DNA of 64,000 nucleotides, taken from NCBI RefSeq assembly GCF_036379615.1, contig NZ_DASVGJ010000060.1, forward strand, positions 105,310-169,309. The letters run 5' to 3'. The stretch's first letter is position 1, and every line of letters starts with the position of its first letter. This document shows, piece by piece, positions 1,246-34,414 of this stretch. Origin of the DNA: Brachybacterium sp. (lineage in GTDB: Bacteria > Actinomycetota > Actinomycetes > Actinomycetales > Dermabacteraceae). The position numbers were made by a program, and so were the translations under genes. Below the pieces are notes generated by a model. That model made no database searches. It was not told where the DNA came from and saw only the letters and a program-made list of their open reading frames with translations.

Positions 1246-2118
1246 ATGCACACACGCACCCGTCAGGTCAGCGCTCTGCTGGCAACCCTGATCGTCATGC
1301 TGGGAACCCTGTCGCTCACCCAGGCCTCGGCCCTGGCCGACAGCGGGCACCAACGGGGTCCCGATCCCACGCAGCAGAGCATCGAGGCCACGCGCGGCAG
1401 CTTCGACATCGACTCCACCAGGGTGTCCTCGCTGAGGGTCCGCGGCTTCGGCGGCGGCACCATCTATTACCCGACGTCCACGGCGGAGGGGACCTTCGGG
1501 GCGGTCGTCATCTCTCCGGGGTACACGGCGGGCCAGTCGAGCATCGCGTGGATGGGCCCCCGCTTCGCCTCCCAGGGCTTCGTGGTCTTCACGATCGACA
1601 CCAACTCCCGCTACGACCAGCCCTCCTCGCGAGGCGATCAGCTGCTGGCCGCCCTGGACTATCTCACCGACAGCAGCGCCGTCAGCGACCGCATCGACCC
1701 CCAGCGCCTGGCCGTGATCGGGCACTCCATGGGCGGGGGCGGGACCCTCGAGGCCGCGAAGGATCGGCCCGAGCTGAAGGCCGCCGTGGCGATGACCCCG
1801 TGGAACCTCGACAAGTCCTGGCCGGAGATCTCGACCCCCACCCTCGTGGTCGGCGCGCAGAACGACTCGGTCGCCTCCGTGCGCACCCACGCCGTGCCGC
1901 TGTACGAGGGGATCCCGGAATCGACCGACAAGGCCTACCTGGAGCTGCGTGGCGCCTCGCACCTGGCGCCGAACCGTTCGAACACGAGCATCGCGAGCAC
2001 CAGCATCGCCTGGCTCAAGCGATTCGTGGATGACGACGTCCGCTACGATCAGTTCGTCTGCCCCGGACCGCAGACGGGCCTCACCTGGAGCGATGCCAGG
2101 TCCACCTGCCCGTTCTGA
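1246..2118 (+). CDS. Secreted cutinase / PETase-like polyester hydrolase (alpha/beta hydrolase, Streptomyces lipase/Thermobifida cutinase family)
   Basis: Signal peptide; PGYT oxyanion loop; GHSMGGGG nucleophile; TPW; QNDS acid; ASHLAPN His; C-terminal CPGP...STCPF cysteine pair; RBS GAGGAG. Confidence 0.93.
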   Translation: MHTRTRQVSALLATLIVMLGTLSLTQASALADSGHQRGPDPTQQSIEATRGSFDIDSTRVSSLRVRGFGGGTIYYPTSTAEGTFGAVVISPGYTAGQSSIAWMGPRFASQGFVVFTIDTNSRYDQPSSRGDQLLAALDYLTDSSAVSDRIDPQRLAVIGHSMGGGGTLEAAKDRPELKAAVAMTPWNLDKSWPEISTPTLVVGAQNDSVASVRTHAVPLYEGIPESTDKAYLELRGASHLAPNRSNTSIASTSIAWLKRFVDDDVRYDQFVCPGPQTGLTWSDARSTCPF

Positions 2119-2993: not shown

Positions 2994-3022
2994 TTGAGTC
3001 GGAAGGTGACCTGGGTTAGTGT
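2994..3022 (+). promoter_or_regulatory. Sigma-A-type promoter of the hisD-like 1 operon
   Basis: TTGAGT (2994-2999), 17 bp, TAGTGT (3017-3022); an ATG follows at 3029, suggesting a leaderless start. Confidence 0.5.
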
Positions 3023-3033
3023 ATGCGTATGCA
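3020..3033. promoter_or_regulatory. LacI-type operator, site 1
   Basis: TGTATGCGTATGCA matches palindromic consensus TGYATRCGYATRCA fully; overlaps the -10 and start. Confidence 0.7.
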
Positions 3034-4351
3034 CATGAGTTCACTGGACAAAGAGCTGCTCGGAGCGCGCGTCCGCGTCGTCAAGGAATCCGGCGTCCCG
3101 GATCGTTCGGCGCAGTCGGATCCCGAGGTGGAGGCGACCGTCTCCCGGATGCTCTCCGAGATCGAGGCCGAGGGCATGGATGCCGTGCGCCGCTACGCGC
3201 GCGAGCTCGACGGCGACCGCTCCGACAGCTTCCTGATCAGCTCCCCGCAGCTCGAAGCGGCGGGCGAGGAGCTCCCCGAGAGCCTCCGCGAGGCCCTCCG
3301 TGCGGGGGCCGAGCGCACCGGACGGTTCGCGACGTTGCAGCGTGAGCGGCTGCTCGACTTCGAAGAGGAGGTCGTCCCCGGGGTGGTCTGCGGTCAGCGG
3401 CACATCCCGGTCCAGAGCGTGGGCGCGTACCTGCCAGCGGGCCGTTTCCCACTGCTGGCCAGTGCCTTCATGACTGTCGGCGTGGCGGGCGTCGCCGGGG
3501 TGCCGAACCTCGTGGCCTGCACGCCGCCGAGCCGGGACGGCGTTGCGCACCCCGCGGTGCTCTACGCCGCGCACCTCTCCGGGGCCGAGCAGGTCTACGC
3601 GCTCGGAGGGGTCCAGGCGCTCGCCTCGATGGCCTTCGGTCTGCTCGACGCACCGCCGTCGGACCTGATCGTCGGCGCCGGCAACGCCTATGTCGCCGCC
3701 GCGAAGCGGCAGTTGTTCGGCCAGGTCGGGATCGACGTGCTCGCCGGTCCCTCCGAGGTGGCGGTCATCGCCGACGACTCCGCCCCCACCGAGATGGTCG
3801 CCGCCGATCTCCTCGGACAGGCCGAGCACGGACCGACCTCGCCCGCGTGTCTGGTGACCACCTCGGAGCGGATCGCCGCGGAGATCGAGGAGGAGATCGC
3901 ACGCCAGCTGGAGGGGCTCGACACCGCGAGCATCGCCGGTGCCGCCTGGCGGGACTTCGGCTCCGTTTACCTCGCCGAGGACCGGCGTGCCGCCGTCGAC
4001 ATCATGAACCTGCTCGCTCCGGAGCACCTCGAGGTGCTCGCCGAGGACCTCGACTGGTATCTGGAGAACCTCACGAGCTACGGCTCCCTCTTCCTCGGGC
4101 CCTGGTCCACGGTCGCCTATGCGGACAAGGGGATGTCCGGGACCAATCACGTCCTGCCCACCGGCCGCAACGCGCGCTTCACCGGCGGGCTGTCCGTGGC
4201 GGGCTTCATGAAGTGCGTGACCTACCAGCGCGCGACGAAGGAGGCCACGGCGACACAGGCCGAGCCCGTCGTGACCATCTCGGAGTTCGAGGGGATGCCC
4301 GCGCACCGGGACTCCGCCGCGCTCCGCCTCCGCATGCTCCGCTCCGGCTGA
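3029..4351 (+). CDS. Histidinol-dehydrogenase-family NAD-dependent dehydrogenase 1 (HpsN-like, probably non-biosynthetic)
   Basis: GAYLPAG, GAGNAYV, AGPSE, DLLGQAEHG, PEHL, ADKGMSGTNHVLPT motifs; start could be 3023, 3029 or 3035. Confidence 0.9.
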   Translation: MHMSSLDKELLGARVRVVKESGVPDRSAQSDPEVEATVSRMLSEIEAEGMDAVRRYARELDGDRSDSFLISSPQLEAAGEELPESLREALRAGAERTGRFATLQRERLLDFEEEVVPGVVCGQRHIPVQSVGAYLPAGRFPLLASAFMTVGVAGVAGVPNLVACTPPSRDGVAHPAVLYAAHLSGAEQVYALGGVQALASMAFGLLDAPPSDLIVGAGNAYVAAAKRQLFGQVGIDVLAGPSEVAVIADDSAPTEMVAADLLGQAEHGPTSPACLVTTSERIAAEIEEEIARQLEGLDTASIAGAAWRDFGSVYLAEDRRAAVDIMNLLAPEHLEVLAEDLDWYLENLTSYGSLFLGPWSTVAYADKGMSGTNHVLPTGRNARFTGGLSVAGFMKCVTYQRATKEATATQAEPVVTISEFEGMPAHRDSAALRLRMLRSG

Positions 4352-4421
4352 CCGCCGGGCACTCGATGTTCCGGGCCGCACCCGCGGTTCGCCGTCTCAC
4401 AACGCAGTGAAGGACAGCGAC

Positions 4422-5756
4422 ATGACAGTGCACTCCATCCTCCCCTCCGCCACCCGCCGCGCCGCTCTGGCGGGGCTAGGCCTGGCAGGGCTCGCGGGCC
4501 TCACGGCCTGCGGGGCCGGCTCCCGCAACCCTGCCGAGCAGGCGGCGAAGGTCGCCTGCGAGGTGCCGCAGCCGGACTCGGCCGTCACCATCAACGTGCT
4601 CGCCTACAACTCCTCGTCGATCGACCCGTTCACCAATACGCTGGTAAACAGTTGCACGTCGGGGAACATCACGCTTCGGCACGAGCCGATCGACTTCGCG
4701 GGACAAGTGCAGCGCACCCAGGCGACGCTCGCGGGCGAGACAGGCACGTACGACATCATTGAGACGTACAGCTTCGTGATCCCCCAGTTCGGGGACGAGG
4801 GCACTGTCGTCGGCCTGAACCAGTACCTGGAGGAGTTCGGCGAGGCGTACGGTCTCGACGCGCTGAGCGACGCGATGCTCGAGGCGATGACCTACGACGG
4901 CGAGCTCTACGCCCTGCCGATGCAGGCGCAGATGCACCTCATGGCGTACCGCCAGGACATCTTCGATGAGCTGGGCCTCGAGGCGCCCGCCACCTTCGAG
5001 GAGCTGAGAGCGGCGGCAAAGGCGATCCAGGAGGCGGGGGAGATCGAGCACCCGATCGCCATGCCGCTCAAGGCCGATGCCGATCTCGCCACCGCCTACG
5101 ACATGGCGCTGGGCAGCCTTGGGGTGGATATGACCGACGCGGAGGGGACGACGGGGAACTTCGACGCCCCCGAGGCCGCGCAGGCCTTCGAGGAGCTGAT
5201 GTCGCTCATCCCCTACATGGATCCGGAGGTCACGACCTTCGACCAGCCGTCCGTTCAGCAGCAGATGTACAACGGCACAGCCGCCATCGCGATCATGTTC
5301 TCGGGGCGCATGAACGACCTCACCATGGAGTCGAACACCGAGCTCGCTCCGCAGTTCGCGTTTGCCCCGCCGCCCACCGTCGTCGAGGGCGGGCACTACT
5401 TCGCCTCGCTCTCCGTGGACGGCTGGTCGATCCCGACCAACGCGTCGACTGACAAGGCCTCGCTGTTCCAGATGATCGCCTCATCGCTGAGCGAGGAGGC
5501 GTCCCGGGAGGCCGTTCCGGCCGCGTACCCCGCCCGCGAGGGCATGGTCGACGAGGACTCGAGTCCGTACGCCGTCGCCGCGAACACGACGATCGAGGAC
5601 GTCCCGCCCTCGGAGCCGTACCCCTGGACGGCAGAGCTCACGAACGCGATCACGCCGCTCATCGCGAGCGTCTTCCTCGAGCAGGTCTCCGTCGAGGACG
5701 GCCTGTCCCAGATGCAGACCACGAGCGCGGACCTGCTGGCCGCGTACTCGGGCTGA
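4422..5756 (+). CDS. Carbohydrate (CUT1) ABC transporter substrate-binding lipoprotein, Tat-type signal
   Basis: TRRAAL twin-Arg, lipobox LTAC, YALPMQAQMHLMAYRQDIF and APATFEEL motifs. Confidence 0.9.
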   Translation: MTVHSILPSATRRAALAGLGLAGLAGLTACGAGSRNPAEQAAKVACEVPQPDSAVTINVLAYNSSSIDPFTNTLVNSCTSGNITLRHEPIDFAGQVQRTQATLAGETGTYDIIETYSFVIPQFGDEGTVVGLNQYLEEFGEAYGLDALSDAMLEAMTYDGELYALPMQAQMHLMAYRQDIFDELGLEAPATFEELRAAAKAIQEAGEIEHPIAMPLKADADLATAYDMALGSLGVDMTDAEGTTGNFDAPEAAQAFEELMSLIPYMDPEVTTFDQPSVQQQMYNGTAAIAIMFSGRMNDLTMESNTELAPQFAFAPPPTVVEGGHYFASLSVDGWSIPTNASTDKASLFQMIASSLSEEASREAVPAAYPAREGMVDEDSSPYAVAANTTIEDVPPSEPYPWTAELTNAITPLIASVFLEQVSVEDGLSQMQTTSADLLAAYSG

Positions 5757-5792
5757 GCGCCGGAGCGCGACGATGGCGAAGGAAGGTGACGC

Positions 5793-6662
5793 ATGAGGCG
5801 TCGGGAGTACGCAGTGCTCGTCGCACCCAGCATGATCGTAATGTTCGGCCTCCTGGCCCTCCCGCTGCTGCGCACGCTCCAATGGAGCTTCCAGCGCGTG
5901 GACTACGGGCAGCCGGGCACCTGGGTCGGGCTGACGAACTACACCTCCGCGCTGGGGGATCCCCGGTTCCTCCGGGCGATCGGTTTCACGATCGGGCTCA
6001 CGGCGGCCACGTTCGTGGTGGTGGTGCTGATCGCATACGTGCTGGCGGTGCTGGTGAATCAGCTCGGTCGGATCCGTCCGCTGGTGCTGGGAACGCTGCT
6101 GGTGAGCTACGTGGTCCCCCAGGTGATCGGGGCGACGATGTTCGGATGGCTGTTCAACCCCAGCTTCGGCGGGGTCGCGAACCATCTGCTCACGCTGGTG
6201 ACCGGCGAGGACGTCCTATGGCTCACCGAGGCCTGGCCCAACCGTCTGCTGCTGCTCCTGTCCGTGGCCTGGGGCCTGATCCCTTTCGCGATGCTCGTCA
6301 TACTCGCAGGTCTGCAAGGAGTCCCAGAGGAGATGCTCGAGGCCGCGGAGCTCGACGGCGTCTCCACCCTCCAGCTCCATCTGAAAGTCATCGTCCCGAC
6401 CATCCGGGGCGTGCTCGGCTTCGTCTCGCTGATCCTGATCATGGATGTGCTGCGAGTCTTCGATCAGCTCATTCCCCTGTCCCCGCAGGCGGTCCAGATC
6501 GGGAACGAGTCCGCGATGCTTTACATCTACAACATCGCCTTCCGCGACGGCGGCCAGCAGCTGGGGCTGGGCAGCGCCGTCAACATCCTCCTGATCGTCG
6601 TCATCTTCATCCTCCTGCTCCCGTTCCTGCGCGGAACGGCGAAGGAAGGGGCCCGCGCATGA
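5793..6662 (+). CDS. Sugar ABC transporter permease (MalF-like)
   Basis: Multiple TM segments; EAA loop LQGVPEEMLEAAELDG. Confidence 0.93.
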   Translation: MRRREYAVLVAPSMIVMFGLLALPLLRTLQWSFQRVDYGQPGTWVGLTNYTSALGDPRFLRAIGFTIGLTAATFVVVVLIAYVLAVLVNQLGRIRPLVLGTLLVSYVVPQVIGATMFGWLFNPSFGGVANHLLTLVTGEDVLWLTEAWPNRLLLLLSVAWGLIPFAMLVILAGLQGVPEEMLEAAELDGVSTLQLHLKVIVPTIRGVLGFVSLILIMDVLRVFDQLIPLSPQAVQIGNESAMLYIYNIAFRDGGQQLGLGSAVNILLIVVIFILLLPFLRGTAKEGARA

Positions 6663-7543
6663 GCTCGACCCGTCCCGCGAGGCAGAGGAACGCGGCCTCA
6701 GGGCGCCGACGGCGCGCAGGCGGCGCAGGAGGAGTGAAGCGCCTGCTGATCGGCATGTTCCTGCTGCTGTTCTGCCTGATGATGCTGTCCCCGGTGCTGT
6801 GGACGCTGGCGTCGGTCACCAAGCCGACCAACGTCGCCTTCCTGAACCCACCCGTCTTCACCTGGATTCCCACCCTGCAGGCGTTCGTCGACCTGTGGCA
6901 GACGACGAACTTCTACCTCGACCTCCTCAACACCGTCATCGTGGCGGTCGCCTCGACGATCGCCGCGCTGGTGCTCGGGATCCCGGCGGCGTACGCGCTC
7001 TCGCGCTTCCCCGGCTGGATCTCCGCCCTGCTCCTGGTGGTCGCCCTGATCTTCCGCGCGCTGCCGCGGTTCTCGATCCTGCTGCCGATGTATGACCTCG
7101 CACAGCAGCTGGGCATCTACGACACCCGCTTCGCGGTGGGGGCGGCGCTGGTCGCGATCAACCAGCCGTTCTCCATCTGGCTGCTGCGCAACTTCTTCGC
7201 CGAGATCCCGAGCTCCCTCGACGAGGCGGCGATGATCGACGGATGCAGTCGCTTCCAGACCCTGCTGCGCGTGATGATCCCGCTCATGGGGCCGGGGATC
7301 CTCACCGCCGGGATCTTTATGTTCCTGTTCGCGTTCCAGGAGTACCTCACGGCCGTCATCCTCAGCAACGTCGACGCCCGGACCGTCCCGGTGTTCATCG
7401 CGACTCAGCTGGGCCAGACTCTGCCCATGCTCCAGCAGGCGGGGGCGGCGTCGGTGCTGCTCACGCTGCCCGTGATCGCCTTCGCACTGATCGCGCAGAA
7501 GTACATGGTCGCCGGCCTCAACGCCGGATCGGTGAAGGGATGA
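6659..7543 (+). CDS. Sugar ABC transporter permease (MalG-like)
   Basis: ATG 6659 overlaps the previous stop (ATGA); EAA loop FFAEIPSSLDEAAMIDG. Confidence 0.93.
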   Translation: MSSTRPARQRNAASGRRRRAGGAGGVKRLLIGMFLLLFCLMMLSPVLWTLASVTKPTNVAFLNPPVFTWIPTLQAFVDLWQTTNFYLDLLNTVIVAVASTIAALVLGIPAAYALSRFPGWISALLLVVALIFRALPRFSILLPMYDLAQQLGIYDTRFAVGAALVAINQPFSIWLLRNFFAEIPSSLDEAAMIDGCSRFQTLLRVMIPLMGPGILTAGIFMFLFAFQEYLTAVILSNVDARTVPVFIATQLGQTLPMLQQAGAASVLLTLPVIAFALIAQKYMVAGLNAGSVKG

Positions 7544-7568
7544 GGCGTCAGCGGGGGAGGAGCCGACG

Positions 7569-8261
7569 GTGACCGCGGAGATCCCCGTCGTCCTCCTGCC
7601 GGGGATGAACTGCACCCCACGGCTCTGGGCGCCCGTCCTGCCCGCGCTGCGGGGGCGCACCGTCCACCACGGCGAGCTCCTCGGTGCCTCGCTCGAGCAG
7701 TGCGTGGAGAACCTGCTGGCCGTGCTCCCGGAGCGCTTCGCCCTGGCGGGGCTGAGCCTCGGAGGGATCGTCGCCATGGCGCTGCTGCGCACGGCGCCGG
7801 AGCGCGTCGACAGGCTCTGCCTGCTGGACACGAACGCTCGCGCGCCCGAACCCGTGCAGCTCGCGGCCTTCGCGCGTCAGCGCCGGAGGCTGGCGACCGG
7901 CGCCAGCGCTCAGGAGGTGCAGAGGGAGCTGCTGGACGTGCTCGTCCATCCTCGGCATCTGTCCCGGCTCGGGCGCGAGGTGGTCCGGATGGGGGAGGAG
8001 ACCGGCGTCGACAGCCTCGCCCAGCAGTACGCGATCCAGGGCACGCGCCGGGACGAGCGCGATCATCTGCCCGGCATCGGGGTTCCGGTCTCCGTCGTTG
8101 CGGGCCGGGACGATGCGCTCTGTCCGCCGGAGCGGCACGAGGAGATCACGGCCCTGGTGCCCGACGCCACCCTCCGGCTCATCCCGCGCACCGGGCACCT
8201 GTCCCCCCTGGAGAGCCCGACCGAGGTCGCGAAGTCGCTGGTGGCCTGGTTGGAGCGCTGA
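7569..8261 (+). CDS. Alpha/beta-fold hydrolase
   Basis: LLPGMNC, GLSLGG nucleophile elbow, GRDD, GHLSPLE; RBS GGGGAGG. Confidence 0.9.
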   Translation: MTAEIPVVLLPGMNCTPRLWAPVLPALRGRTVHHGELLGASLEQCVENLLAVLPERFALAGLSLGGIVAMALLRTAPERVDRLCLLDTNARAPEPVQLAAFARQRRRLATGASAQEVQRELLDVLVHPRHLSRLGREVVRMGEETGVDSLAQQYAIQGTRRDERDHLPGIGVPVSVVAGRDDALCPPERHEEITALVPDATLRLIPRTGHLSPLESPTEVAKSLVAWLER

Positions 8262-8296
8262 GAGCACCCCTCCGGGCGGCGCTGCCCGCCCTGTTC

Positions 8297-9034
8297 TCAG
8301 CGATCTGACCTGGCCAGTCGGGAGAAGCTCGCCATCATGTGTGCTGCGAGGTTGTGGACGATCAGGCGGCAGCCCTGGGCAGAGGCAGCGTCAGCGCCGC
8401 CGAGGGTGGAGACGATGTCGGTCCGGACCGCGCCGGCCTCCCGACCGGCCCGATGCACCGCGTCCGTCAGCTGCGCGAGCGTACGGGTCTCCGCCTCGTC
8501 GTGGGCCAGGGCGAAGGCGAGGTCCCCGGGCCCGATCATGTACCCGTCGACCCCGGGGGTGGCGAGGATCGCCGGAGCGGCGTCCACGGCGGCGGGGGAC
8601 TCGAGCATCACCAGCAGGAGATGGTCCTCGGCGGCGGCGGCGTGCTCCTCGGCCGAACGGGTGCCGAACCGCCCGGCGCGCGTGTAGGTGGCGATGCCCC
8701 TCTCGCCCTGCGGGGGATAACGGGCCCAGCGCACCGCCTCCGCCGCGCCGGCCGGGTCGTCGATGTGCGGGACCACCGCACCGGCGGCGCCGAGGTCGAG
8801 AGCGCGCTGGATGACGTGGGGGTCGCGCTCACCGGGCCGGACCAGCACCGGCAGGCCGTGCACCTGTGCCAGGGCGAGGTGGTGCTTGAGCGCCGTGGCG
8901 TCGTGCGGGCCGTGCTCGAGGTCCAGCACCAGGAAGTCCAGGCCGGCCACCGCGAGCATCTCCACGGTGTCCTCCGCGGGCATCCTCAGCAGTGCTCCGT
9001 GCAGCGAGGAGGAGATGCTCACCAGCTCCCTCAT
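8297..9034 (-). CDS. HpcH/HpaI-family aldolase
   Basis: DFLVLDLEHG, ALDLGAAGAVVPHI, RYPPQGERG, MLES, IGPGDL; ATG at 9034 coupled to the SDR stop. Confidence 0.9.
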   Translation of the reverse strand: MRELVSISSSLHGALLRMPAEDTVEMLAVAGLDFLVLDLEHGPHDATALKHHLALAQVHGLPVLVRPGERDPHVIQRALDLGAAGAVVPHIDDPAGAAEAVRWARYPPQGERGIATYTRAGRFGTRSAEEHAAAAEDHLLLVMLESPAAVDAAPAILATPGVDGYMIGPGDLAFALAHDEAETRTLAQLTDAVHRAGREAGAVRTDIVSTLGGADAASAQGCRLIVHNLAAHMMASFSRLARSDR

Positions 9035-9825
9035 GCGACCATCCCCGCGGAGAGGTCCACGTCCGCCCCCGTCATCCCAGGCATGCCGAGGATCGAGTGC
9101 ACCGCGCCGGCGACCTCCTCCGGGGTGACCATGCGCCCCAGAGCGGCACGCCCGACGAAGGCCTGACGGGCCTCCTCCGGCGTGATGCCGCGGCGTCTCG
9201 CCTCGGCCCGGTAGTTGTGCTCCATGCGCTCGCTCTCCACGGGGCCGGGGGACAGTGCGTTCACGCGCACACCCCCGCGCCCCGCCTCGAAGGCGAGCGT
9301 GGAGGTCAGGCCCAGCACGGCCATCTTGGAGGCGCAGTACGGGGTGCGACCCTCGAGAGGGCGCTTGCCGGAGACGGAGGCCAGGTTGATGATGTCGCCC
9401 GCGCCGCGGCGCATCATCCCGGGGAGCAGGGCACGGCACATGAGGAACGTGCCCCGCACGTTGACGGCGAAGACCTCGTCCCACTCCTCCGGATCGATGT
9501 CGACGAGATCTGCGACGGGGCCGCCGATCCCGGCGTTGTTGACGAGGATCGAGACGTCCTCGTCCCTGAGCCGCTCGGCAAGCGCTGTGACGTCCTCCGG
9601 GGAGGAGACGTCGCAGGGGGCGGGGAGCACGGCGCCGGGGTGCACGGCGGCGAGCTCTTCGAGCGGTGCCGGCCGACGGCCGACGGCGATCACGCGAGCG
9701 CCCGAGCGCACCAGGCGCGCGGCGATCGCCCGTCCCAGCCCGGTGCCGGCGCCGGTCACCACGGCCGTCCGGTCGGCGAGGTCCTCGGTGCCTGCGTGCT
9801 CGCCCGAATCCGTGCCTGTGACCAT
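9031..9825 (-). CDS. Short-chain dehydrogenase/reductase (SDR)
   Basis: TGAGTGLG Rossmann motif, NNAG, NLAS, YCASK catalytic YxxxK. Confidence 0.95.
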   Translation of the reverse strand: MVTGTDSGEHAGTEDLADRTAVVTGAGTGLGRAIAARLVRSGARVIAVGRRPAPLEELAAVHPGAVLPAPCDVSSPEDVTALAERLRDEDVSILVNNAGIGGPVADLVDIDPEEWDEVFAVNVRGTFLMCRALLPGMMRRGAGDIINLASVSGKRPLEGRTPYCASKMAVLGLTSTLAFEAGRGGVRVNALSPGPVESERMEHNYRAEARRRGITPEEARQAFVGRAALGRMVTPEEVAGAVHSILGMPGMTGADVDLSAGMVA

Positions 9826-9828
9826 GCC

Positions 9829-11148
9829 TCAGCCCTCGGCCTTCGCCGCGGTGATCCAGTCGACGGGGTCTCCGCCGTGCAGGTGGGCGCGCAGGTCCCC
9901 GGAGCGTGCATGGCCCTCGAACCGCTCGACGCGCGCGGCGCGCCCGCACAGCCGTCCGAGCTCGGCGCTGGTCCGCGGAGAGGTGACCTCCTGGTACGTG
10001 ACCGTCTTGAGGTACTTCCCGACCCACAGGCCGCCGGTGTAGCGGGCGGCGCCGCGGGTGGGCAGCACATGGTTGGTGCCGATGACCTTGTCCCCGTAGG
10101 AGACGCACGTGTTCTCACCGAGGAACAGCGCACCGTAGTCGTGCAGGCGCTCCAGTGCCTGTCGCGGCTCGGCGGTCATGACCTGGACGTGCTCGGCGGC
10201 GTTCTGGTCCGCGAGATGCCACAGCTCGTCCATGTCCTCGGCGATCTCGATGCGCCCGTGGTCGCGCCAGGCCGGGCCGGCCATGTCGCGGGTGGGCATG
10301 TCCACCAGGAGCCGCTCGACGATCTCGAGCACCTCTGCGGCCTGGGCCTCGTCCGTGGTGATCAGGACGGCAGGGGAGTCGGGGCCATGCTCTGCCTGGG
10401 AGAGGAGGTCGACGGCGATGGTGAACGGGTCCGCCGTGCCGTCGGCGAGGATGAGCACCTCTGTCGGGCCGGCGAAGAGGTCGATGCCCACCTCGCCGAA
10501 CAGGAGGCGCTTCGCCTCGGCGACGAAGGCGTTCCCGGGGCCCGCCAGCAGATTCACCGGCGCGATGGTCTCGGTGCCCACGGCGAGGGCGGCCACCGCC
10601 TGCACGCCGCCCAGGACGTAGATCTCGTCGGCACCGGCGCTGCGCATGGCGGCGATCGTCGCCGCCGGGATCTCGCCCATGATCGGAGGGGTCGCCGCAG
10701 CCACCCGCTCGACGCCGGCGACCTTCGCGGTCACGATCGTCATGTGCGCGGAGGCGGTGAGCGGATAACGACCTCCCGGGACGTAGGAGCCGGCGCTCCG
10801 GATCGGAACGTGCGTGTGTCCGAGGAGCACCCCGGGCTGGGTCTCGATCTCGAGGTCCGTGAGCGTCCCGCGCTGCGCCTGCGCGAACTGCCTGACGGAG
10901 GCCTGCACAGTGCCGATGTCCTCGAGCGTCTGCGCGCTCAGCGGCGCGATGATCCGCTCGATTTCCTCGTCCCCCAGGCGGAACGAGTCGGGGGACCACG
11001 AATCGAACCGCTCCGAGTACCGGCGGACCGCCTCGTCTCCGTTGCTGCGGATGTCCTCGATGATCTCCTGGACGCGACCGGAGAGCTCGCGGGCCTCCGT
11101 GCGGCCGCTCCCACCCTCACCCGTGGCGGCCTTGAGCACCTTCACCAT
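9829..11148 (-). CDS. Histidinol-dehydrogenase-family dehydrogenase 2 (HpsN-like)
   Basis: YVPGGRYP, GPGNAFV, AGPTE, DLLSQAEHG, AEHV, YGDKVIGTNHVLPT, EGH; RBS AAGGAGG. Confidence 0.92.
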   Translation of the reverse strand: MVKVLKAATGEGGSGRTEARELSGRVQEIIEDIRSNGDEAVRRYSERFDSWSPDSFRLGDEEIERIIAPLSAQTLEDIGTVQASVRQFAQAQRGTLTDLEIETQPGVLLGHTHVPIRSAGSYVPGGRYPLTASAHMTIVTAKVAGVERVAAATPPIMGEIPAATIAAMRSAGADEIYVLGGVQAVAALAVGTETIAPVNLLAGPGNAFVAEAKRLLFGEVGIDLFAGPTEVLILADGTADPFTIAVDLLSQAEHGPDSPAVLITTDEAQAAEVLEIVERLLVDMPTRDMAGPAWRDHGRIEIAEDMDELWHLADQNAAEHVQVMTAEPRQALERLHDYGALFLGENTCVSYGDKVIGTNHVLPTRGAARYTGGLWVGKYLKTVTYQEVTSPRTSAELGRLCGRAARVERFEGHARSGDLRAHLHGGDPVDWITAAKAEG

Positions 11149-11165
11149 CAGTACACTCCTCCTTT

Positions 11166-11179
11166 GGCATGCGCATGCA
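11166..11179. promoter_or_regulatory. LacI-type operator, site 2 (between divergent hisD-like 2 and lacI)
   Basis: GGCATGCGCATGCA, 13/14 match to TGYATRCGYATRCA; core GCATGCGCATGC is a perfect palindrome. Confidence 0.65.
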
Positions 11180-11257
11180 TGAAGTGCGGCAAGTGTGCCC
11201 GAGGTAGGCTCGGGGCGTCAAGGGGGCGGAGGCCTCTCGTTGCGAGGAGCAGGGGTG

Positions 11258-12271
11258 ATGATGGTCAGCAGCAAGGATGTCGCGCGCCTCGCAGGGGTCT
11301 CCCAGCCCACCGTCTCCCGGGCCCTGCGCGGAGACCCTCGCCTGACCGAGGCCACGAAGCAGAAGGTGCGCAGCGCGGCCGAGCAGCTCGGGTACTCGCC
11401 CAACGCCTTCGGTCGCGCCCTGGCGACCGGGCGCTCCACGCGCGTGGGCCTGCTCGTCACGGATCTCGACAACCACTTCTTCATCAACGTCCTCGCGGCG
11501 ATCCATGACGAGCTGGGTGGGAGTGGCCACGAGATGATCCTGCTGACGGAGTCCTCCGGGGCGGACGGGATCGAGGCGCGGGTCTCCTCCTTGGGGCTCG
11601 GTGGCGTCATCCTGGCGACCACGACGACCGCCTCGCTGCTGCCGATCCGGCTCGCGGACCGATCGATCCCGTTCGTCTACTTCAACCGCGTCTCGGAGCT
11701 GGTGGCCGCGGATTCTGTGCAGGTGGATCCCGAGGTCGGCCTCGGCGAGCTCGCGGCCGCCCTGGCGGAGCTCGGGCACGAGCAGGTCGGGGCGGTGCTC
11801 GGCCCCAGCAACACGAGCACGGGCGTGGCCCGGGAGTTCGCGCTGCGGCGGGCGCTCGCCGCTCATGGCCTGACGCTCCGCGATGAGAGCACCCGTCGCG
11901 GCGACTTCTCCGTGGAGTGCGGGAACCTCCTCGCCGGGGAGCTGCTCGACGCAGAGCGGCGCCCGTCGGTGATCGTCTGCGGGAACGACGACGTCGCCCT
12001 GGGGGCCCTGAACGCCGCGGCGGCCCGGGGTCTGAGGGTGCCCGAGGACGTGTCCGTGGTGGGCTTCGATGATCTGCCGACGGCGAGCTGGCCGATCGTG
12101 CAGCTGACGACCGTCCGCTACGACCTCGAGGGGATGGCCCGGGCGGCGGCTCGGGCGATGGTGCGACGGATGGAGAGTGTGCCGGGCGCCGAGGTTGAGC
12201 TCGAAGCCGTCGTGCTTCCCAGCTCGCTGGTGCGCCGACGCAGCCTCGGCGTCGCGCCCACCCGTTCCTGA
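11258..12271 (+). CDS. LacI-family transcriptional regulator
   Basis: SSKDVARLAGVSQPTVSRAL HTH, LGYSPN hinge, CGNDDVALG, SVVGFDD; start 11258 or 11261. Confidence 0.95.
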   Translation: MMVSSKDVARLAGVSQPTVSRALRGDPRLTEATKQKVRSAAEQLGYSPNAFGRALATGRSTRVGLLVTDLDNHFFINVLAAIHDELGGSGHEMILLTESSGADGIEARVSSLGLGGVILATTTTASLLPIRLADRSIPFVYFNRVSELVAADSVQVDPEVGLGELAAALAELGHEQVGAVLGPSNTSTGVAREFALRRALAAHGLTLRDESTRRGDFSVECGNLLAGELLDAERRPSVIVCGNDDVALGALNAAAARGLRVPEDVSVVGFDDLPTASWPIVQLTTVRYDLEGMARAAARAMVRRMESVPGAEVELEAVVLPSSLVRRRSLGVAPTRS

Positions 12272-12378
12272 CCGCGCATCGGCGAGAGTCCCCGTCCGCG
12301 CCCCTGCGCGGCACCCCGGGCGGCCCCCGTGCCCGCTCGACCGTCCGGCCGGCCCCTGCGAGATGAGCTGTCGACATG

Positions 12379-12407
12379 TTGACGAACCGTGTGCATACGC
12401 ATACCCT
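12379..12407 (+). promoter_or_regulatory. Sigma-A-type promoter overlapped by LacI operator site 3
   Basis: TTGACG (12379-12384), 17 bp, TACCCT (12402-12407); operator TGCATACGCATACC at 12392-12405; 12390-12404 is the exact reverse complement of 3021-3035. Confidence 0.7.
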
Positions 12408-12445
12408 CGTGACGAAGCACAGTCGCGACGAGGAGGAGCGAGTCC

Positions 12446-13447
12446 GTGAGTCTGGACCCGATTGCATATCAGCCGTACAGCGATCCCGATGAGTTCATCC
12501 GCGAGGTGACCGACCGGATCTGGGTCGGTCGGGACATCGACCACATCATTGAGAACTACGAAGAGGATTCGATCGTCCACGGGAGCCTGGGGACGACCGT
12601 CGGCCGCCAGGGCGTCATCGACGGCACCACGATGAGGATCGCGACCGTCCCGCAGCACGTCGGGGTCGCCGAGGACGTCATCTGGGAGCAGAGGGGAGAG
12701 GACGCCTTCCTCAGCTCGCACCTGGTCTTCTCCAGTGACGAGCACATCGTCGACGGTCGCCTGCGCCGGGTGCGCTCCCGCACCGTCGCCAACTGCCTCT
12801 ATCGGCGGGGGCGGATGGTGGAGGAGTGGGTGGTCCGCGACTCGCTCGCGGACTGCCTCCAGCGGGGGATCCCTCCGGAGGAGGCCGCTGCGGAGATGCG
12901 ATTCGTCGGCCACGAGGGCTCCTGGACGCAGCAGTCGCCCGCGGACCCGCTGCGCAGCGGCGAGAGCGGACCGCGGCCCAGCACCGCGAACGCCAGCTGC
13001 GCGATGGTGCTGGACATGATCGAGGAGGTGTGGAACAAGCGGCGCCTAGATCAGGTCCACGAGTACATGGTCCGGGACCTCTTCCTCCACACCGTCGGCG
13101 ACTCCACCGTCCTGCGCCCCGAGGGATATCAGAAGGACCTGCTCTCGCTCATCGCCCCGTTCACCGACTGCCGGTTCTCGGTGCGGGACGTCCAGGCCCA
13201 CGACCATCCGGACTACGCGGGCCTGCGGGTCGCCGTGCTCTGGCAGATGACGGGCGTCTACGCCGGCGTCCCCTCGTTCGGCCCGCTCACGAACGCGCCG
13301 GTCGATCTGATGGGCGTCTCCCAGTTCCTTATCCAGAACGGACGGATCGTTCGAGAGATCCGGGTCTATGACGAGATCGCCCTGCGCGCGCAGATCGCCG
13401 TCCACCAGGACGAGAACTCCTCGATGATCGGCACCAACATCTACTGA
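12446..13447 (+). CDS. Tandem SnoaL/NTF2-like (ester cyclase-like) domain protein
   Basis: Two repeated units (..DRIWVGRDIDHIIENY.. and ..EEVWNKRRLDQVHEY..) each ending in MVEEWVVRD / IVREIRVYDE strands; RBS GAGGAGG. Confidence 0.75.
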   Translation: MSLDPIAYQPYSDPDEFIREVTDRIWVGRDIDHIIENYEEDSIVHGSLGTTVGRQGVIDGTTMRIATVPQHVGVAEDVIWEQRGEDAFLSSHLVFSSDEHIVDGRLRRVRSRTVANCLYRRGRMVEEWVVRDSLADCLQRGIPPEEAAAEMRFVGHEGSWTQQSPADPLRSGESGPRPSTANASCAMVLDMIEEVWNKRRLDQVHEYMVRDLFLHTVGDSTVLRPEGYQKDLLSLIAPFTDCRFSVRDVQAHDHPDYAGLRVAVLWQMTGVYAGVPSFGPLTNAPVDLMGVSQFLIQNGRIVREIRVYDEIALRAQIAVHQDENSSMIGTNIY

Positions 13448-13549
13448 CGCCCCACCGGCAGGCCTCCGCCGGCACGCCGCCGGTGGCCCATCGGCCGCAG
13501 CGCCGCACCCCCGCATCCGCACCTCGACACCCGCCACAGGAGCAACGCC

Positions 13550-14698
13550 ATGACCACGACCGCCCCCTCCGGCACCGACGCCGCGAGCCGCACCATCCTC
13601 CGCACCGACTGGGTCCCCTGCAAGACGGCCTTCATCGACACCAGGACGCCGGGCTCGGACCAGAAGGACAACTACTCCTTCATCGGCCCCGGGGTCAGCC
13701 AGAACTCCGACCAGTTCGTGAACATCGCCGAACCCCACGGCTTCAACATGGGCGCCGCCGGCATGCCGCACGGTCTCGTCAACAGCCTTCACCTGCACTT
13801 CACCGCCGAGGTGTTCATCAACTTCGACGGCGACTACCTGCTGCGCTGGGGAGCCGAGGGGGAGCAGGGGACGTACCGGTCCCTGGACGGCGACATCATC
13901 TCGGTGCCGCCGTGGGTCTTCCGCGGCTTCACCAACGAGGGCTCCGGCGACGGCGTCCTGCTCACCGTCCTCGGCCAGGACCGCACCGGAGGCATCATCT
14001 GGGGGCCCAAGGTCATCGAGGAGGCAGGGAAGCACGGCCTGTACCTGTCCTCGGACAACCAGCTCGTGGACACGACACAGGGTGACTCGCTTGAGGGGGT
14101 CGAGCTCATCGAGCCGATGCCGCAGGCGGAGATCGATCGGCTCGACGTCGTGACCGAGGAGCAGTTCGCGACGCGGGTCACCAGGCCGCAGGACCGTGTC
14201 TGGCAGGAGCGGCCGTTCCTCTGCTCGGTGCTGCCGGGCGGTCGTGCCGAGCTGTCCCTCATCATCGGGTACGGCCTCACCGAGCAGGTCCGTGACGTCC
14301 CGCGCCTGCACGATCCGCACTCCTTCACCGTGGCGTGGCTGCGGGCGGCGCAGGGGGAGGGCATGCTCGAGCACACGATCGACCGTCACCAGGTGCTGGT
14401 TGCACGGACCGGGAGCTGGGAGGTCGCCTTCGAGACAGAGGAGGGCCTGCAGACTGTGGAGCTGAACCGGCTCGACGCGGTCTCGATCCCCCCGGGCGCG
14501 CGTCGTTCCCTGAAGGCCCTGGCGGCGGGCGAGGACGGCACCTCTGAGATCCTCGTCGTCGTCGAGGGCGACGGCCGAGCGCATCAGCGGTGGAGCGATG
14601 AGGTGGTCGCCGCGGCGCAGGATGCCGGTTGGGTGCTCGATCCCAACGGTTACGTCGCGCCCTCGGCGCTGCTCGCGAACTCGCCGACCCCGCGCTGA
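13550..14698 (+). CDS. Uncharacterised bicupin-like protein
   Basis: SLHLHFTAEVF (HxH..E cupin motif 1), GDIISVPPWVFRGFTN (motif 2 variant), second degenerate cupin DAVSIPPGARRSL; RBS AGGAG. Confidence 0.65.
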   Translation: MTTTAPSGTDAASRTILRTDWVPCKTAFIDTRTPGSDQKDNYSFIGPGVSQNSDQFVNIAEPHGFNMGAAGMPHGLVNSLHLHFTAEVFINFDGDYLLRWGAEGEQGTYRSLDGDIISVPPWVFRGFTNEGSGDGVLLTVLGQDRTGGIIWGPKVIEEAGKHGLYLSSDNQLVDTTQGDSLEGVELIEPMPQAEIDRLDVVTEEQFATRVTRPQDRVWQERPFLCSVLPGGRAELSLIIGYGLTEQVRDVPRLHDPHSFTVAWLRAAQGEGMLEHTIDRHQVLVARTGSWEVAFETEEGLQTVELNRLDAVSIPPGARRSLKALAAGEDGTSEILVVVEGDGRAHQRWSDEVVAAAQDAGWVLDPNGYVAPSALLANSPTPR

Positions 14699-14705
14699 GC
14701 GCATC

Positions 14706-15548
14706 GTGGACGGTGACCCCGTGCTGCGCGCGGCGGCCTGCCAGCTGCGCATCGACATCGACGCGCCGACACCGTTGGAGGAGATCGAACGGACCGTCGC
14801 GGACGCGGCCGGCGCCGGAGCGCGGCTGATCGTCCTCCCCGAGCTCGCACTGAGCGGATACGTGTTCCGCTCGGGTGACGAGCTGGAGGAGCTCGCGGAG
14901 CGGCCCGACGGACGCACCGCGGCGTTCGCTGCGCGGGTCAGCGCCGAGCACGGCTGCGTCCTCGTCGCGGGGTTCCCGGAGCGGGACGGCGCCCACGTGT
15001 GCAACAGCGCCGTGATCGCCGATCGGGGCGAGGTGCGCGGGATCTACCGGAAGGTGCATCTCTGGGACGAGGAGAAGCTCCTCTTCACGCCCGGGGACGG
15101 GCCGCCCCTGGTGGTGGACACGAGCCTCGGGCGGGTGGGCGTGATGATCTGCTACGACGCGGAGTTCCCCGAATGGGTGCGACGCGCGGCCCAGGATCGG
15201 GTCGACGTCCTCGCCGTGCCGGTCAACTGGCCGCTGATGCCCAGACCGGACGGCCAGGTCGCGGTGGAGGTCGCCAAGATCAGGGCGGCGGCCGCCGCCT
15301 ACCGGGTGCCGATGGTCGTCGCCGACCGCTGCGGCCGCGAGCGCGGCACCGACTGGGTGGGCGGGAGCCTGGTCGCCGACGCCGGCGGATACCTGCTGGC
15401 GGGTCCCGCGACCACTGACGGGACGGCGGCGGCGGCGACGGTCATCGCCGACATCGATCTGCGCGACGGGCGGTGCAAGGCCCTCACGCGGCAGGCGCAC
15501 GTCTGGGGCGACCGGCGGCCGGCGCTCTATGGGGACGACGACCGGTGA
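14706..15548 (+). CDS. Nitrilase-superfamily carbon-nitrogen hydrolase
   Basis: Triad motifs VLPEL (Glu), YRKVHL (Lys), MICYD (Cys); GTG start at 14706 inferred. Confidence 0.9.
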   Translation: MDGDPVLRAAACQLRIDIDAPTPLEEIERTVADAAGAGARLIVLPELALSGYVFRSGDELEELAERPDGRTAAFAARVSAEHGCVLVAGFPERDGAHVCNSAVIADRGEVRGIYRKVHLWDEEKLLFTPGDGPPLVVDTSLGRVGVMICYDAEFPEWVRRAAQDRVDVLAVPVNWPLMPRPDGQVAVEVAKIRAAAAAYRVPMVVADRCGRERGTDWVGGSLVADAGGYLLAGPATTDGTAAAATVIADIDLRDGRCKALTRQAHVWGDRRPALYGDDDR

Positions 15549-15741: not shown

Positions 15742-16815
15742 ATGAGGTCGAGGACGACCCCGAGACCACCAGGCCCACGACTCGGACGGCGCACGCTGCT
15801 GACGGGGATCCCGCTGCTCGGCGCCGGAGCGCTCGCGATGGCGGGCTGTGCACCGTCGGACGCCGGCGCGGCCACCGACGTCGAGAACATCCTGACGGTC
15901 TCCCTGAACCAGACCGAGACCCACCCCAGCTATCTCGCGCTGACCTACTTCGGCGAGCAGCTCGCCGAGGCGACGGGCGGCCGCTGGGGCGCCCGCATCT
16001 ACGCCAATGAGGCGCTCGGCGCCCAGCAGGAGGTCGTCCAGCTCGTCTCCGACGGCAGCGTCGACATGGCGATCATCTCCGCTCCGCAGGTCGAGAACCT
16101 CTCGATGGCGTTCCGCCCGCTGAACCTGCCCGGCGCCTTCGTGGACATCGAGCACCAGACCGCCGTGCTGCAGGACGAGTCGATCGTGGGGGAGCTGTTC
16201 TCCTCCCTCGAGGACGAGCGGCGCCTGCGCGTGCTCGGCGGATTCACCCAGGGGTCCCGCCACGTCTACACCGACCGCGGCCCGATCGAGAGCCCCGAGG
16301 ACCTCGCCGGGCTGAAGGTCCGCGTCCAGGAGTCCGACGTGTTCATGGCGCTGACCCGCGCGCTCGGCGCGTCACCCACCCCGATGGCCTACGGCGAGGT
16401 GTACACCGCGCTGCAGGCCGGGGTGCTCAACGGCGCCGAGAACAACGAGGTCAGCTACGTGACCCAGCGCCACTACGAGATCGCTCCGCACTTCACCCTC
16501 ACCAACCACCTGGTGGGGCTCGACTACGTGATGGCGAACGTGGACCGGATCGGGGAGATGGACGGCGCGGACCAGGAGGCCTTCTCTCAGTGCTTCACCG
16601 CCGCGCAGGAGGAGTTCGTGCGCCTGTGGGCGCAGGAGACCGAGTCCAGCACGCAGGCGATGCTCGATGCGGGGGTCGAGATCACCGAACCCGATCCTGA
16701 GGCGTTCACCCCGGCGATCGAGGAGGTGGGGCGCTCCTTCCTGGGCAGCCCTGAGGACGAGGACCTGTACGAGCGCGTGCGCGCGCTCGCTGAGGACATG
16801 GGGGTTCAGCGATGA
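15742..16815 (+). CDS. dctP: TRAP transporter substrate-binding protein (DctP family)
   Basis: Tat/lipoprotein signal (GRRTLL...AGC), GLKVRVQ with conserved Arg, PMAYGEVYTALQAGVLNGAENN; RBS GAGGAGG. Confidence 0.92.
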   Translation: MRSRTTPRPPGPRLGRRTLLTGIPLLGAGALAMAGCAPSDAGAATDVENILTVSLNQTETHPSYLALTYFGEQLAEATGGRWGARIYANEALGAQQEVVQLVSDGSVDMAIISAPQVENLSMAFRPLNLPGAFVDIEHQTAVLQDESIVGELFSSLEDERRLRVLGGFTQGSRHVYTDRGPIESPEDLAGLKVRVQESDVFMALTRALGASPTPMAYGEVYTALQAGVLNGAENNEVSYVTQRHYEIAPHFTLTNHLVGLDYVMANVDRIGEMDGADQEAFSQCFTAAQEEFVRLWAQETESSTQAMLDAGVEITEPDPEAFTPAIEEVGRSFLGSPEDEDLYERVRALAEDMGVQR

Positions 16816-17387: not shown

Positions 17388-17390
17388 GCC

Positions 17391-21432: not shown

Positions 21433-21434
21433 CG

Positions 21435-21986: not shown

Positions 21987-22016
21987 GACGGGTCCTTGTC
22001 GAGAGGTGGGGGAGGG

Positions 22017-34342: not shown

Positions 34343-34414
34343 GGAGGGGTGGTCCCGTATCCTCGTCCCCACCGGCCGCTGTGCCGGCCCCGAGACCGAC
34401 CTGAGGAAGGGCCC

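Follow-up and report, generated by a model that had tools for sequence, protein, structure and literature searches.

To our knowledge, enzymes of the HisD family are known for two activities only, the oxidation of histidinol and the oxidation of 2,3-dihydroxypropane-1-sulfonate (DHPS) or cysteinolate. Here we describe a 12-gene cluster in a 64-kb stretch of Brachybacterium sp. DNA (contig NZ_DASVGJ010000060.1; hereafter the window), which contains two genes for HisD-like dehydrogenases, hisD-like1 and hisD-like2 (hisD1 and hisD2 in other genomes). The other genes encode a solute-binding protein (SBP) with two permeases, an alpha/beta-hydrolase, a C-N hydrolase, an HpcH aldolase, a short-chain dehydrogenase/reductase (SDR), a LacI-family regulator, a tandem SnoaL protein and a bicupin. 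The comparisons below suggest an inducible catabolic cluster composed of new subfamilies of known enzyme superfamilies.

The closest described relatives of the HisD-like proteins are the DHPS dehydrogenase HpsN (PDB 8V35, 8WWE; PMC11382572, PMC11131964, PMC12814064) and histidinol dehydrogenase, HisD (EC 1.1.1.23; PDB 1K75, 4G07). The diagnostic loop reads G-R-Y-A/S-H in HpsN and G-S-A-P-L in HisD (PMC11382572). In HpsN, the final His of the loop, His126, is first a zinc ligand and then hydrogen-bonds the sulfonate jointly with Lys353, the second sulfonate contact, which adjoins the zinc ligand Asp352 (PMC11382572). The members in that survey of HpsN were only proteobacterial and desulfobacterial (PMC11382572). 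HpsN acts in the route from DHPS to sulfolactate and then, with SlcD/ComC, to sulfopyruvate, and its gene is found with the epimerase pair hpsO and hpsP (an SDR gene and a zinc-dependent alcohol dehydrogenase [Zn-ADH] gene, respectively) and a sulfolyase route (SuyAB, Xsc/ComDE or CuyA).

The HisD-like dehydrogenases

Both HisD-like proteins of the window passed the TIGR00069 (hisD) cut-off (435 against 244 bits), and databases therefore name their orthologues histidinol dehydrogenase. For the orthologues, NCBI gives histidinol dehydrogenase and JGI gives sulfopropanediol 3-dehydrogenase. However, HpsN was the best match of both proteins in the PDB, and true HisD scored about 100 bits lower: hisD-like1 matched CpHpsN with 384 bits and HisD with 264 bits, while hisD-like2 matched HpsN with 348 to 355 bits and HisD with 242 to 262 bits. 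The two paralogues are 44% identical to each other.

A neighbor-joining tree, drawn as a quick sketch with HpsN and HisD reference sequences that were copied from alignments in print and are slightly incomplete, separated three lineages: a hisD1 clade (G-R-F-P-L), a hisD2 clade (G-R/K-Y-P-L), which takes in Gram-negative members, and HpsN proper. The three lineages are 41 to 50% identical among themselves and 35 to 39% identical to true HisD (Brucella); hisD1 and hisD2 are each 45 to 50% identical to HpsN. The window enzymes belong to Actinobacteria, where the HpsN survey reported none.

Both paralogues share the PF00815 fold with HpsN and retain its Gln/His/Asp/His zinc ligands and Glu-His catalytic pair, as seen in QAEHG, E-H, D and the C-terminal His. 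They also keep Arg-Tyr/Phe in the specificity loop, as well as the Asp-Lys pair that includes Lys353. Unlike HpsN, hisD-like1 (G-R-F-P-L) and hisD-like2 (G-R-Y-P-L) have Leu, after Pro, at the position equivalent to His126. The pattern G-[RK]-[YF]-P-L and the D-K pair were found in all 104 full-length HisD-family copies from the 83 related loci described below, and Leu likewise replaces His126 in the Gram-negative homologues. The window enzymes resemble HisD in the residues for metal binding and catalysis and in the P-L of the loop, but the G-S/T-A of HisD is G-R-Y/F in them, and its D-Y is D-K.

These comparisons suggest that the two genes are not histidine-biosynthesis genes but represent two new lineages in the HpsN branch of PF00815. 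The enzymes almost certainly share the four-electron alcohol-to-carboxylate chemistry of the family, with CH2OH presumably converted to COO- as in HpsN. The two basic residues kept and the one hydrogen-bond donor lost suggest that the group bound is anionic but not a sulfonate, for example a carboxylate. The genomic context also differs from that of HisD: LacI operators precede both copies, importers and an aldolase gene lie nearby, and annotation of the whole 64-kb window found no other his genes, in agreement with the original prediction. A third hisD copy was searched for across the window and was not found.

Operators and conservation of the gene set

A 12-mer, GYATGCGYATGC, is common to three promoter regions of the cluster; its consensus is a palindrome of the half-sites GCATAC and GTATGC. 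A palindrome with a central CG is usual for LacI-family operators, and the encoded LacI protein combines a helix-turn-helix (HTH) domain with a periplasmic-binding-protein-like effector domain, in keeping with the palindromic central-CG sites at the promoters predicted to be regulated. Exact matches in the 64-kb window were three only (O1 to O3, Table 1), all at promoters, where 0.03 would be expected by chance. A scan of the window for sigma-70 promoters and intrinsic terminators was uninformative at 71% GC.

The same 12-mer is found at the hisD1 start in other genera. Counted across the 83 loci with one mismatch or fewer, the motif was present upstream of 49 of 84 SnoaL orthologues, in the LacI-divergent region of 27 of 83 loci and at 13 of 36 hisD1 starts, while the remaining 1.5 Mb of sequence gave 5 matches. 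In the window the operator is confined to the three promoters, and other genera conserve it; the three transcription units would therefore form one LacI-type regulon, and we regard these sites as strong sequence evidence for their co-regulation.

Operator O1 codes for the apparent N terminus of hisD-like1, M-R-M-H-M, with in-frame ATGs at 3023, 3029 and 3035 and a TAGTGT -10-like hexamer just upstream. This arrangement suggests a leaderless or near-leaderless hisD-like1 transcript that begins near the ATG at 3035, so that the operator would cover the start of transcription. In some Streptomyces loci (L033, 9943-9966; L067, 9950-9967), three or four tandem GTATGC hexamers make up a longer operator upstream of the SnoaL gene; the extended site gives overlapping 12-mer matches and can be read as a hexamer repeat or as a palindrome.

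To follow the gene set in other genomes, we anchored a survey on the tandem SnoaL gene, scanned species-representative genomes and compared 83 loci with the window proteins by tblastn. Relatives were found in at least 232 actinobacterial species genomes, in which the gene set co-occurs, and all 80 loci kept from the scan were from Actinomycetota. LacI was present in 80, the bicupin in 79, the SDR in 78 and HpcH in 75 of the 83 loci, and open reading frame (ORF) clustering found at least one HisD-like copy in 80. Most missing genes were at loci that end at contig ends. The genes flanking the cluster in the window (TetR, PETase-like, SRPBCC and TRAP) were found in none of the 83 loci by tblastn. 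Clustering of all ORFs of the 83 loci revealed no further recurrent enzyme family, and the gene set thus appears closed.

The closest named relative of hisD2 is in a Brachybacterium metagenome-assembled genome (83% identity), and orthologues about 70% identical were found in Microbacterium, Kribbella, Pseudonocardia, Nocardioides and Streptomyces. Synteny spans Micrococcales, Propionibacteriales, Pseudonocardiales and Streptomyces. Kribbella shirazensis has a 12-gene layout identical to that of the window, while in Pseudonocardia and Microbacterium these units are slightly rearranged. The window-type architecture has the ATP-binding cassette (ABC) importer, the C-N hydrolase and three units. 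In Streptomyces and Amycolatopsis, bicupin, hydrolase, hisD2, SDR, HpcH, a major facilitator superfamily (MFS) carrier and SnoaL form a co-directional block adjoining LacI; the partner of hisD1 in the Streptomyces type is an amino acid-polyamine-organocation (APC) permease, and in Amycolatopsis a LysR regulator lies alongside. The C-N hydrolase is absent in Streptomyces, with a 43 to 44% identical copy in a few Amycolatopsis loci. Seven loci (L014, L016, L038, L059, L074, L076 and L080) have hisD1, SDR and/or HpcH, SnoaL and bicupin but lack a hisD2-type gene; one HisD-like enzyme may therefore partly substitute for the other, and the two may not act in strict sequence.

Beyond this group, an exhaustive search with the tandem SnoaL protein placed the orthologue group under one 50%-identity representative and found about 10 full-length two-domain relatives at 38 to 42% identity, with many further relatives at 24 to 34%. 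One of these loci (L089, 62% GC) is Gram-negative, with an adjoining porin gene; it has two permeases adjoining a MalK-type ATPase, LacI, and SnoaL, SBP, SnoaL, HisD-like, SDR, bicupin, hydrolase and HpcH in one operon. Another (L095/L096), with a TonB-dependent receptor, has two SnoaL genes, HisD-like, LacI, an SSF symporter, hydrolase, HpcH, bicupin, SDR, Amidohydro_2 and L-serine dehydratase. A third (L093, 76% GC) has HpcH, bicupin and hydrolase with SnoaL, SDR, Zn-ADH and a CUT1 ABC system. In the others (L084, L085-87, L088, L091 and L092), SnoaL is accompanied by a DAO-family FAD oxidase (twice), a class-III aminotransferase, L-asparaginase with a class II aldolase, or a hisD1-type gene with a C-N hydrolase. 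The HisD-like proteins of L089 and L095 are 52 to 54% identical to hisD2 and have G-K-Y-P-L with D-K.

These distant loci suggest that the module predates the actinobacterial orthologue group and extends beyond it, with transporters and nitrogen-removing enzymes as its variable partners. The co-occurrence in other genomes that the original prediction called for was thus found across orders and phyla, and the flanking genes were never conserved with the set. Likewise, the set matched no described pathway, as had been supposed: no curated family, solved structure or searchable paper describing it was found, and literature searches for HisD with SnoaL, cupin and HpcH gave no description. A tambjamine preprint that names the "histidinol dehydrogenase homologous superfamily" was set aside as irrelevant, since it concerns aldehyde dehydrogenase (ALDH)-type reductases.

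In L095/L096, which represent a Gram-negative version of the module, the gene for an iron-sulfur L-serine dehydratase (19567-20946) runs in the same direction as those for the bicupin and the SDR. Its presence may hint that the pathway yields serine or a similar hydroxy-amino acid, such as could come from serinol-type substrates.

Proposed pathway and rival explanations

The HpcH aldolase matched GarL (1dxe) best in the PDB, followed by YfaU and HpaI. Inspection of its translation showed that the catalytic residues of these enzymes are kept in LDLEHG (D-x-E-H), VLVRPGE, MLES and GPGDL, including the equivalents of Arg70, Glu149 and Asp175. In HpaI, Arg70 is catalytic, and Glu149 and Asp175 are metal ligands. 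The score against GarL was about 100 bits, far under the equivalog cut-offs. The SDR was closest to hydroxyacyl and 3-hydroxybutyrate dehydrogenases in the PDB, and in all architectures its gene lies directly against, or overlaps, those of hisD-like2 and HpcH. The alpha/beta-hydrolase, which is found in nearly all related loci, matched the short-chain esterase 4uhc best in the PDB and had weak PcaD/enol-lactonase-like NCBIfam matches. The C-N hydrolase, whose best PDB matches were Pyrococcus PH0642 and the nitrilase 3ivz, has the motifs of the Glu, Lys, Cys triad and is an accessory member that accompanies the ABC-importer version of the cluster.

For the SBP, the PDB gave weak best matches only: the sugar-ABC binder 5iai, the sorbitol-annotated 4rya and other sugar binders. 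The window cluster encodes the SBP and two permeases, but no ABC ATPase gene was found in it; a single MsiK ATPase is often shared in actinobacteria. The transporters are swapped by lineage among a CUT1 ABC system, an MFS carrier of the metabolite:H+ symporter (MHS) type, a gamma-aminobutyrate (GABA)-permease-like APC carrier and an SSF symporter with a TonB receptor. The Streptomyces MFS carrier is a metabolite:H+ symporter (TIGR00883, 361 bits; ProP, 284 bits; ShiA, 243 bits), and the Streptomyces APC carrier is GABA-permease-like (583 bits, below the cut-off of 678 bits). The MFS and APC carriers of Streptomyces and Amycolatopsis point to a small acid or zwitterion as the substrate.

The tandem SnoaL protein is about 332 residues long throughout and 64 to 87% identical in the 120 closest relatives; no other member of the wider module is as constant. 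Its AlphaFold2 (AF2) model (pLDDT 72, pTM 0.77) consists of two NTF2-like domains, each of which resembles single-domain SnoaL, AclR and ChaU-type proteins (Foldseek, target-normalized TM about 0.8) and nothing more specific. The AF2 model of the bicupin (pLDDT 84, pTM 0.87) resembled vicilins, MncA, oxalate decarboxylase (OxdC) and quercetinase with a whole-chain TM of only about 0.45. The folds thus match those of SnoaL/AclR-type NTF2 enzymes and of the bicupins OxdC, MncA and quercetinase (Foldseek probability 1.0), but neither protein gave a match in sequence searches of the PDB and NCBIfam, and no sequence relationship to any solved structure was detectable. The SnoaL polyketide cyclase is a single NTF2 domain that acts on a polyketide and is encoded in a polyketide synthase (PKS) cluster, whereas the window protein is a two-domain fusion in a catabolic context, with no PKS genes in any locus.

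The N-terminal cupin domain of the window bicupin keeps the H-x-H...E metal motif of known bicupins (H81-x-H83...E87), with an invariant Arg125 in place of the usual fourth His ligand, and its C-terminal domain has no H-x-H motif. Oxalate decarboxylase and quercetinase have a 3-His-1-Glu site per cupin; the window bicupin has neither site in full. The motif H-x-H-x-T-A-E-V-F was kept in all four distant bicupins (35 to 53% identity), and the Arg at the fourth ligand position was recovered in two of them, from L089 and L093.

We propose that the 12 genes form a single LacI-repressed catabolic regulon for a small polar compound, which works by the mechanism described here (probability roughly 0.6). 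That the cluster is a substrate-inducible catabolic regulon of some kind is highly probable. The import-and-degrade system put forward originally is borne out by the lipoprotein SBP with its permeases, the LacI regulator with conserved operators and the aldolase with intact catalytic residues. Because of the basic residues retained in the HisD-like enzymes, the types of carrier, the nitrogen-removing partners and the GarL-like aldolase, the substrate is probably small, polar, anionic or zwitterionic, often nitrogen-bearing, with a primary alcohol beside a hydroxyl or amino carbon. The earlier suggestion of a possibly nitrogen-containing substrate gains indirect support from related clusters, which swap in C-N hydrolase, L-asparaginase, DAO oxidase, class-III aminotransferase and serine dehydratase.

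In the proposed mechanism, an inducer would free the repressor from the three operators, and the CUT1 ABC system would take up the compound. The C-N hydrolase and the alpha/beta-hydrolase would remove an amide or an ester/lactone linkage, and the tandem SnoaL protein and the metal bicupin would carry out a non-redox rearrangement (dehydration, isomerization or decarboxylation). Each HpsN-like zinc enzyme would then oxidize a terminal CH2OH to COO- (4 electrons, 2 NAD+), the SDR would oxidize the resulting 2-hydroxy acid to a 2-oxo acid, and the class II HpcH aldolase would cleave a 4-hydroxy-2-oxo acid to pyruvate and a short aldehyde. This order of import, hydrolysis, rearrangement, CH2OH oxidation, SDR oxidation and retro-aldol cleavage is much less certain than the regulon itself, with odds below even. 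That hisD2, SDR and HpcH are tightly linked in all architectures argues for treating the last three steps as one unit.

The proposed steps follow the logic of the DHPS route, a primary alcohol to an acid and then a 2-hydroxyl to a 2-oxo group, but the anion is probably not a sulfonate, and the 2-oxo acid would pass to an aldolase and not to a decarboxylase, aminotransferase or sulfolyase. The proposed ending is that of the GarL (glucarate/galactarate), YfaU and HpaI pathways, in which a 2-keto-3-deoxy (di)acid is cleaved to pyruvate and an aldehyde. Unlike these non-phosphorylative sugar-acid pathways, however, the window cluster has no enolase-superfamily or IlvD-type dehydratase, kinase or tartronate-semialdehyde reductase, and carboxylates made by HisD-family enzymes would be unprecedented for sugar acids.

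Several observations weigh against the proposed pathway. The sugar-type SBP and the LacI regulator hint at a carbohydrate-like molecule, while the Streptomyces MFS and APC carriers hint at a small acid or zwitterion; the "sugar-like polyol" of the original prediction is uncertain, given the carriers that replace the sugar-type importer in Streptomyces and Amycolatopsis. The folds of the tandem SnoaL protein and the bicupin yield superfamily-level matches that carry no reaction-level information. Most clusters of the Streptomyces type lack the C-N hydrolase, and nitrogen removal is therefore not obligatory. The argument for an anionic substrate relies on two retained basic residues and the analogy with HpsN. 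In addition, the absence of hisD2 from seven loci with hisD1 means that the oxidations may be redundant and not sequential.

A sulfonate pathway is the nearest rival, although we consider it unlikely. The HisD-like proteins would then be HpsN-type dehydrogenases of DHPS, cysteinolate or sulfolactaldehyde, and the cluster would break down DHPS, or sulfoquinovose (SQ) by a sulfo-Entner-Doudoroff (sulfo-ED)-like route with the SDR as SQ dehydrogenase, the hydrolase as lactonase and HpcH as 2-keto-3,6-dideoxy-6-sulfogluconate (KDSG) aldolase. The PDB matches to HpsN, the JGI label, and the retained G-R-Y portion and Lys353 fit such a pathway, as do the SDR gene adjoining hisD2 as hpsO adjoins hpsN, a weak match of the SBP to the SQ-glycerol binder SmoF (32.6 bits) and the presence of SQ 1-dehydrogenase among the SDR matches. 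However, HpsO was not among the top SDR matches, the SQ 1-dehydrogenase match was no better than those of generic SDRs, and the HisD-like enzymes fall in clades separate from HpsN. The His126 that defines HpsN (PMC11382572) is Leu in 104 of 104 copies, and hpsP, SuyAB, Xsc, CuyA, a sulfite exporter, sulfoquinovosidase and sulfogluconate dehydratase were not recurrent among the 83 loci and were not seen in the distant loci inspected. Of the HpsN neighborhood the window has the adjacent SDR only, with neither the hpsO/hpsP pair nor desulfonation genes; of the sulfo-ED route it has generic SDR, hydrolase and aldolase analogues, without a dehydratase of known type, a GH31 sulfoquinovosidase or an exporter. 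The originally suggested sulfonated substrate is weakened by these results.

A biosynthetic cluster for a small natural product is less likely still. Among the tailoring enzymes typical of Actinobacteria are SnoaL-like cyclases, cupins and SDRs, and the best structural neighbors of the tandem SnoaL protein are the polyketide tailoring enzymes AclR, SnoaL2, KstA15 and ChaU, but genes for a PKS, nonribosomal peptide synthetase, terpene or other scaffold were found in 0 of the 83 loci. The transporters are of uptake type (SBP-dependent ABC, H+ symporters, TonB receptor with SSF), the regulator is LacI, the aldolase is a pyruvate aldolase, and in Gram-negative genomes the module occurs with serine dehydratase, amidases and oxidases. 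It is very improbable that one paralogue is the histidinol dehydrogenase of the organism, located here incidentally: the TIGR00069 score, the NCBI name and the shared P-L would fit, but the loop and D-K residues, the lower bit scores and identity to true HisD, the adjacent LacI operators and importers without other his genes in the 64-kb window, and a patchy orthologue distribution tied to the SnoaL/bicupin module all speak against it, and neither paralogue looks like a housekeeping HisD. Equally improbable is that three unrelated operons are adjacent by chance or shared ancestry only. The genes do lie in three transcription units on both strands, with a variable C-N hydrolase and transporter; yet the same operator is found at all three promoters, a single-operon arrangement occurs in Streptomyces and in a Gram-negative genome, and the flanking genes of the window are never conserved with the set.

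If the cluster is a single catabolic regulon as proposed, its pathway may be one that has not been described. We give about even odds to a catabolic pathway widespread among Actinobacteria and some Proteobacteria of the soil, in which two new HisD-family classes oxidize carboxylate-bearing (or polyhydroxy/amino) primary alcohols, and neither histidinol nor sulfonates, while the tandem SnoaL protein and the Arg-bicupin catalyze new non-polyketide reactions on a common overlooked class of metabolites. Candidate classes would be sugar- or polyol-amino-acid conjugates (Amadori- or opine-like), amino-polyols (serinol derivatives), and deoxy or branched sugar acids and their lactones. Chemical logic alone, with none of them asserted, would admit 3,4-dihydroxybutanoate (to malate), threonate, pantoate/pantothenate, isosaccharinic and 3-deoxy-aldonic acids, pyridoxine, kojic acid, gamma-butyrolactones, glucosone/Amadori products and serinol.

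Other genes of the window and implications

Reading frames in the window (about 71% G+C) were chosen by third-position GC, and families were assigned from Pfam and NCBIfam scans. The 12 genes of the original prediction were recovered in this way with their coordinates and families, except that its start for the C-N hydrolase gene, 14598, is probably about 100 nt too early (Table 1). Its right-hand boundary was correct: the downstream tripartite ATP-independent periplasmic (TRAP) transporter genes have no operator and are not conserved with the set. Public sequencing runs that contain the window DNA are soil, gut and phyllosphere metagenomes, and none is an RNA run; the DNA itself appears to come from a soil metagenome.

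The TRAP transporter was considered as a cluster member and rejected, since it is absent from every related locus and operator-free; it is probably a lineage-specific neighbor, although it could conceivably take up the acid form of the cluster substrate. The PETase/cutinase-like gene just upstream is not conserved with the cluster either. Further along the window, the RNase H-DUF4440 gene adjoins a DUF222/HNH endonuclease gene; such endonuclease genes are often mobile or selfish elements in actinobacteria. The second LacI-family regulator and the GH2 glycoside hydrolase appear to be an unrelated sugar-utilization unit. Two genes that share the Helicase_C_3 domain lie a few kilobases apart, with a two-component system and small unknown ORFs near both.

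Table 1. Positions, strands and distinguishing features of operators and genes in the window
Feature	Positions	Strand	Remarks
Operator O1	3021-3032	+	GTATGCGTATGC; overlaps first two candidate ATGs of hisD-like1
Operator O2	11167-11178		GCATGCGCATGC, perfect palindrome; divergent hisD-like2/lacI region, 19 nt upstream of hisD-like2 ATG
Operator O3	12393-12404	-	GTATGCGTATGC; between TTGACG -35-like and TACCCT -10-like hexamers, 42 nt upstream of SnoaL gene
hisD-like1	3023-4351	+	PF00815, E 1e-130; G-R-F-P-L; predicted Zn/NAD-dependent, HpsN-like branch
Solute-binding lipoprotein, putative CUT1-type ABC importer	4422-5756	+	SBP_bac_1, SBP_bac_8; signal peptide, lipobox LTAC
ABC permease 1	5793-6662	+	BPD_transp_1; kept with SBP in window-type clusters
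ABC permease 2	6659-7543	+	BPD_transp_1; 76-89% identity within window-type clusters
Alpha/beta-hydrolase, esterase or lactonase type	7569-8261	+	Abhydrolase_6/1; GLSLGG nucleophile motif
Class II HpcH/HpaI pyruvate aldolase	8297-9034	-	PF03328, E 8e-27
SDR	9031-9825	-	adh_short, E 4e-52
hisD-like2	9829-11148	-	PF00815, E 3e-134; G-R-Y-P-L
LacI-family regulator	11255-12271	+	LacI HTH, Peripla_BP_1/3
Tandem SnoaL/NTF2-like protein	12446-13447	+	Pfam SnoaL match on C-terminal half only
Bicupin	13550-14698	+	AF2 model and Foldseek
Nitrilase-superfamily C-N hydrolase, amidase or nitrilase type	14706-15548	+	CN_hydrolase, E 1e-41
TetR regulator	466-1104	-	Divergent from PETase-like gene
Secreted PETase/cutinase-like alpha/beta-hydrolase	1246-2118	+	PF12740, 387 bits, E 7e-116
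TRAP transporter DctP, DctQ, DctM (complete)	15742-18710	+	Immediately 3' of C-N hydrolase, same strand; in 0/83 related loci
Energy-coupling factor (ECF)-type vitamin transporter span	18821-23844	-
ECF T component, CbiQ-like	18821-19651	-
ECF fused double ATPase	19648-21558	-
ECF S component, riboflavin type	21435-21986	-
S-adenosylmethionine (SAM) hydroxide adenosyltransferase	22017-22907		PF01887/PF20257; after ECF genes, then CAAX-protease-like membrane protein
Second LacI-family regulator, then GH2 glycoside hydrolase	34337-37539	+
RNase H domain fused to DUF4440 (NTF2-like)	40503-41546	+
DUF222/HNH endonuclease	41641-43413	-
Two-component system	49369-51657
XPB/ERCC3-type helicase	52306-53970	-	Helicase_C_3
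6-Phosphogluconate dehydrogenase	55819-57279
Large protein with Helicase_C_3 domain	57802-60318	-
ROK-family protein	60934-62109

Across genomes, proteins of the two further HisD-family lineages carry the wrong name, either histidinol dehydrogenase or sulfopropanediol 3-dehydrogenase. Correcting these names matters, since the mis-annotation could inflate metagenomic estimates of DHPS-degrading potential. The conserved operator and its repressor offer a ready handle toward the inducer. The identity of the substrate would give function to at least four orphan protein families together and would probably reveal the turnover route of a common soil or plant metabolite.

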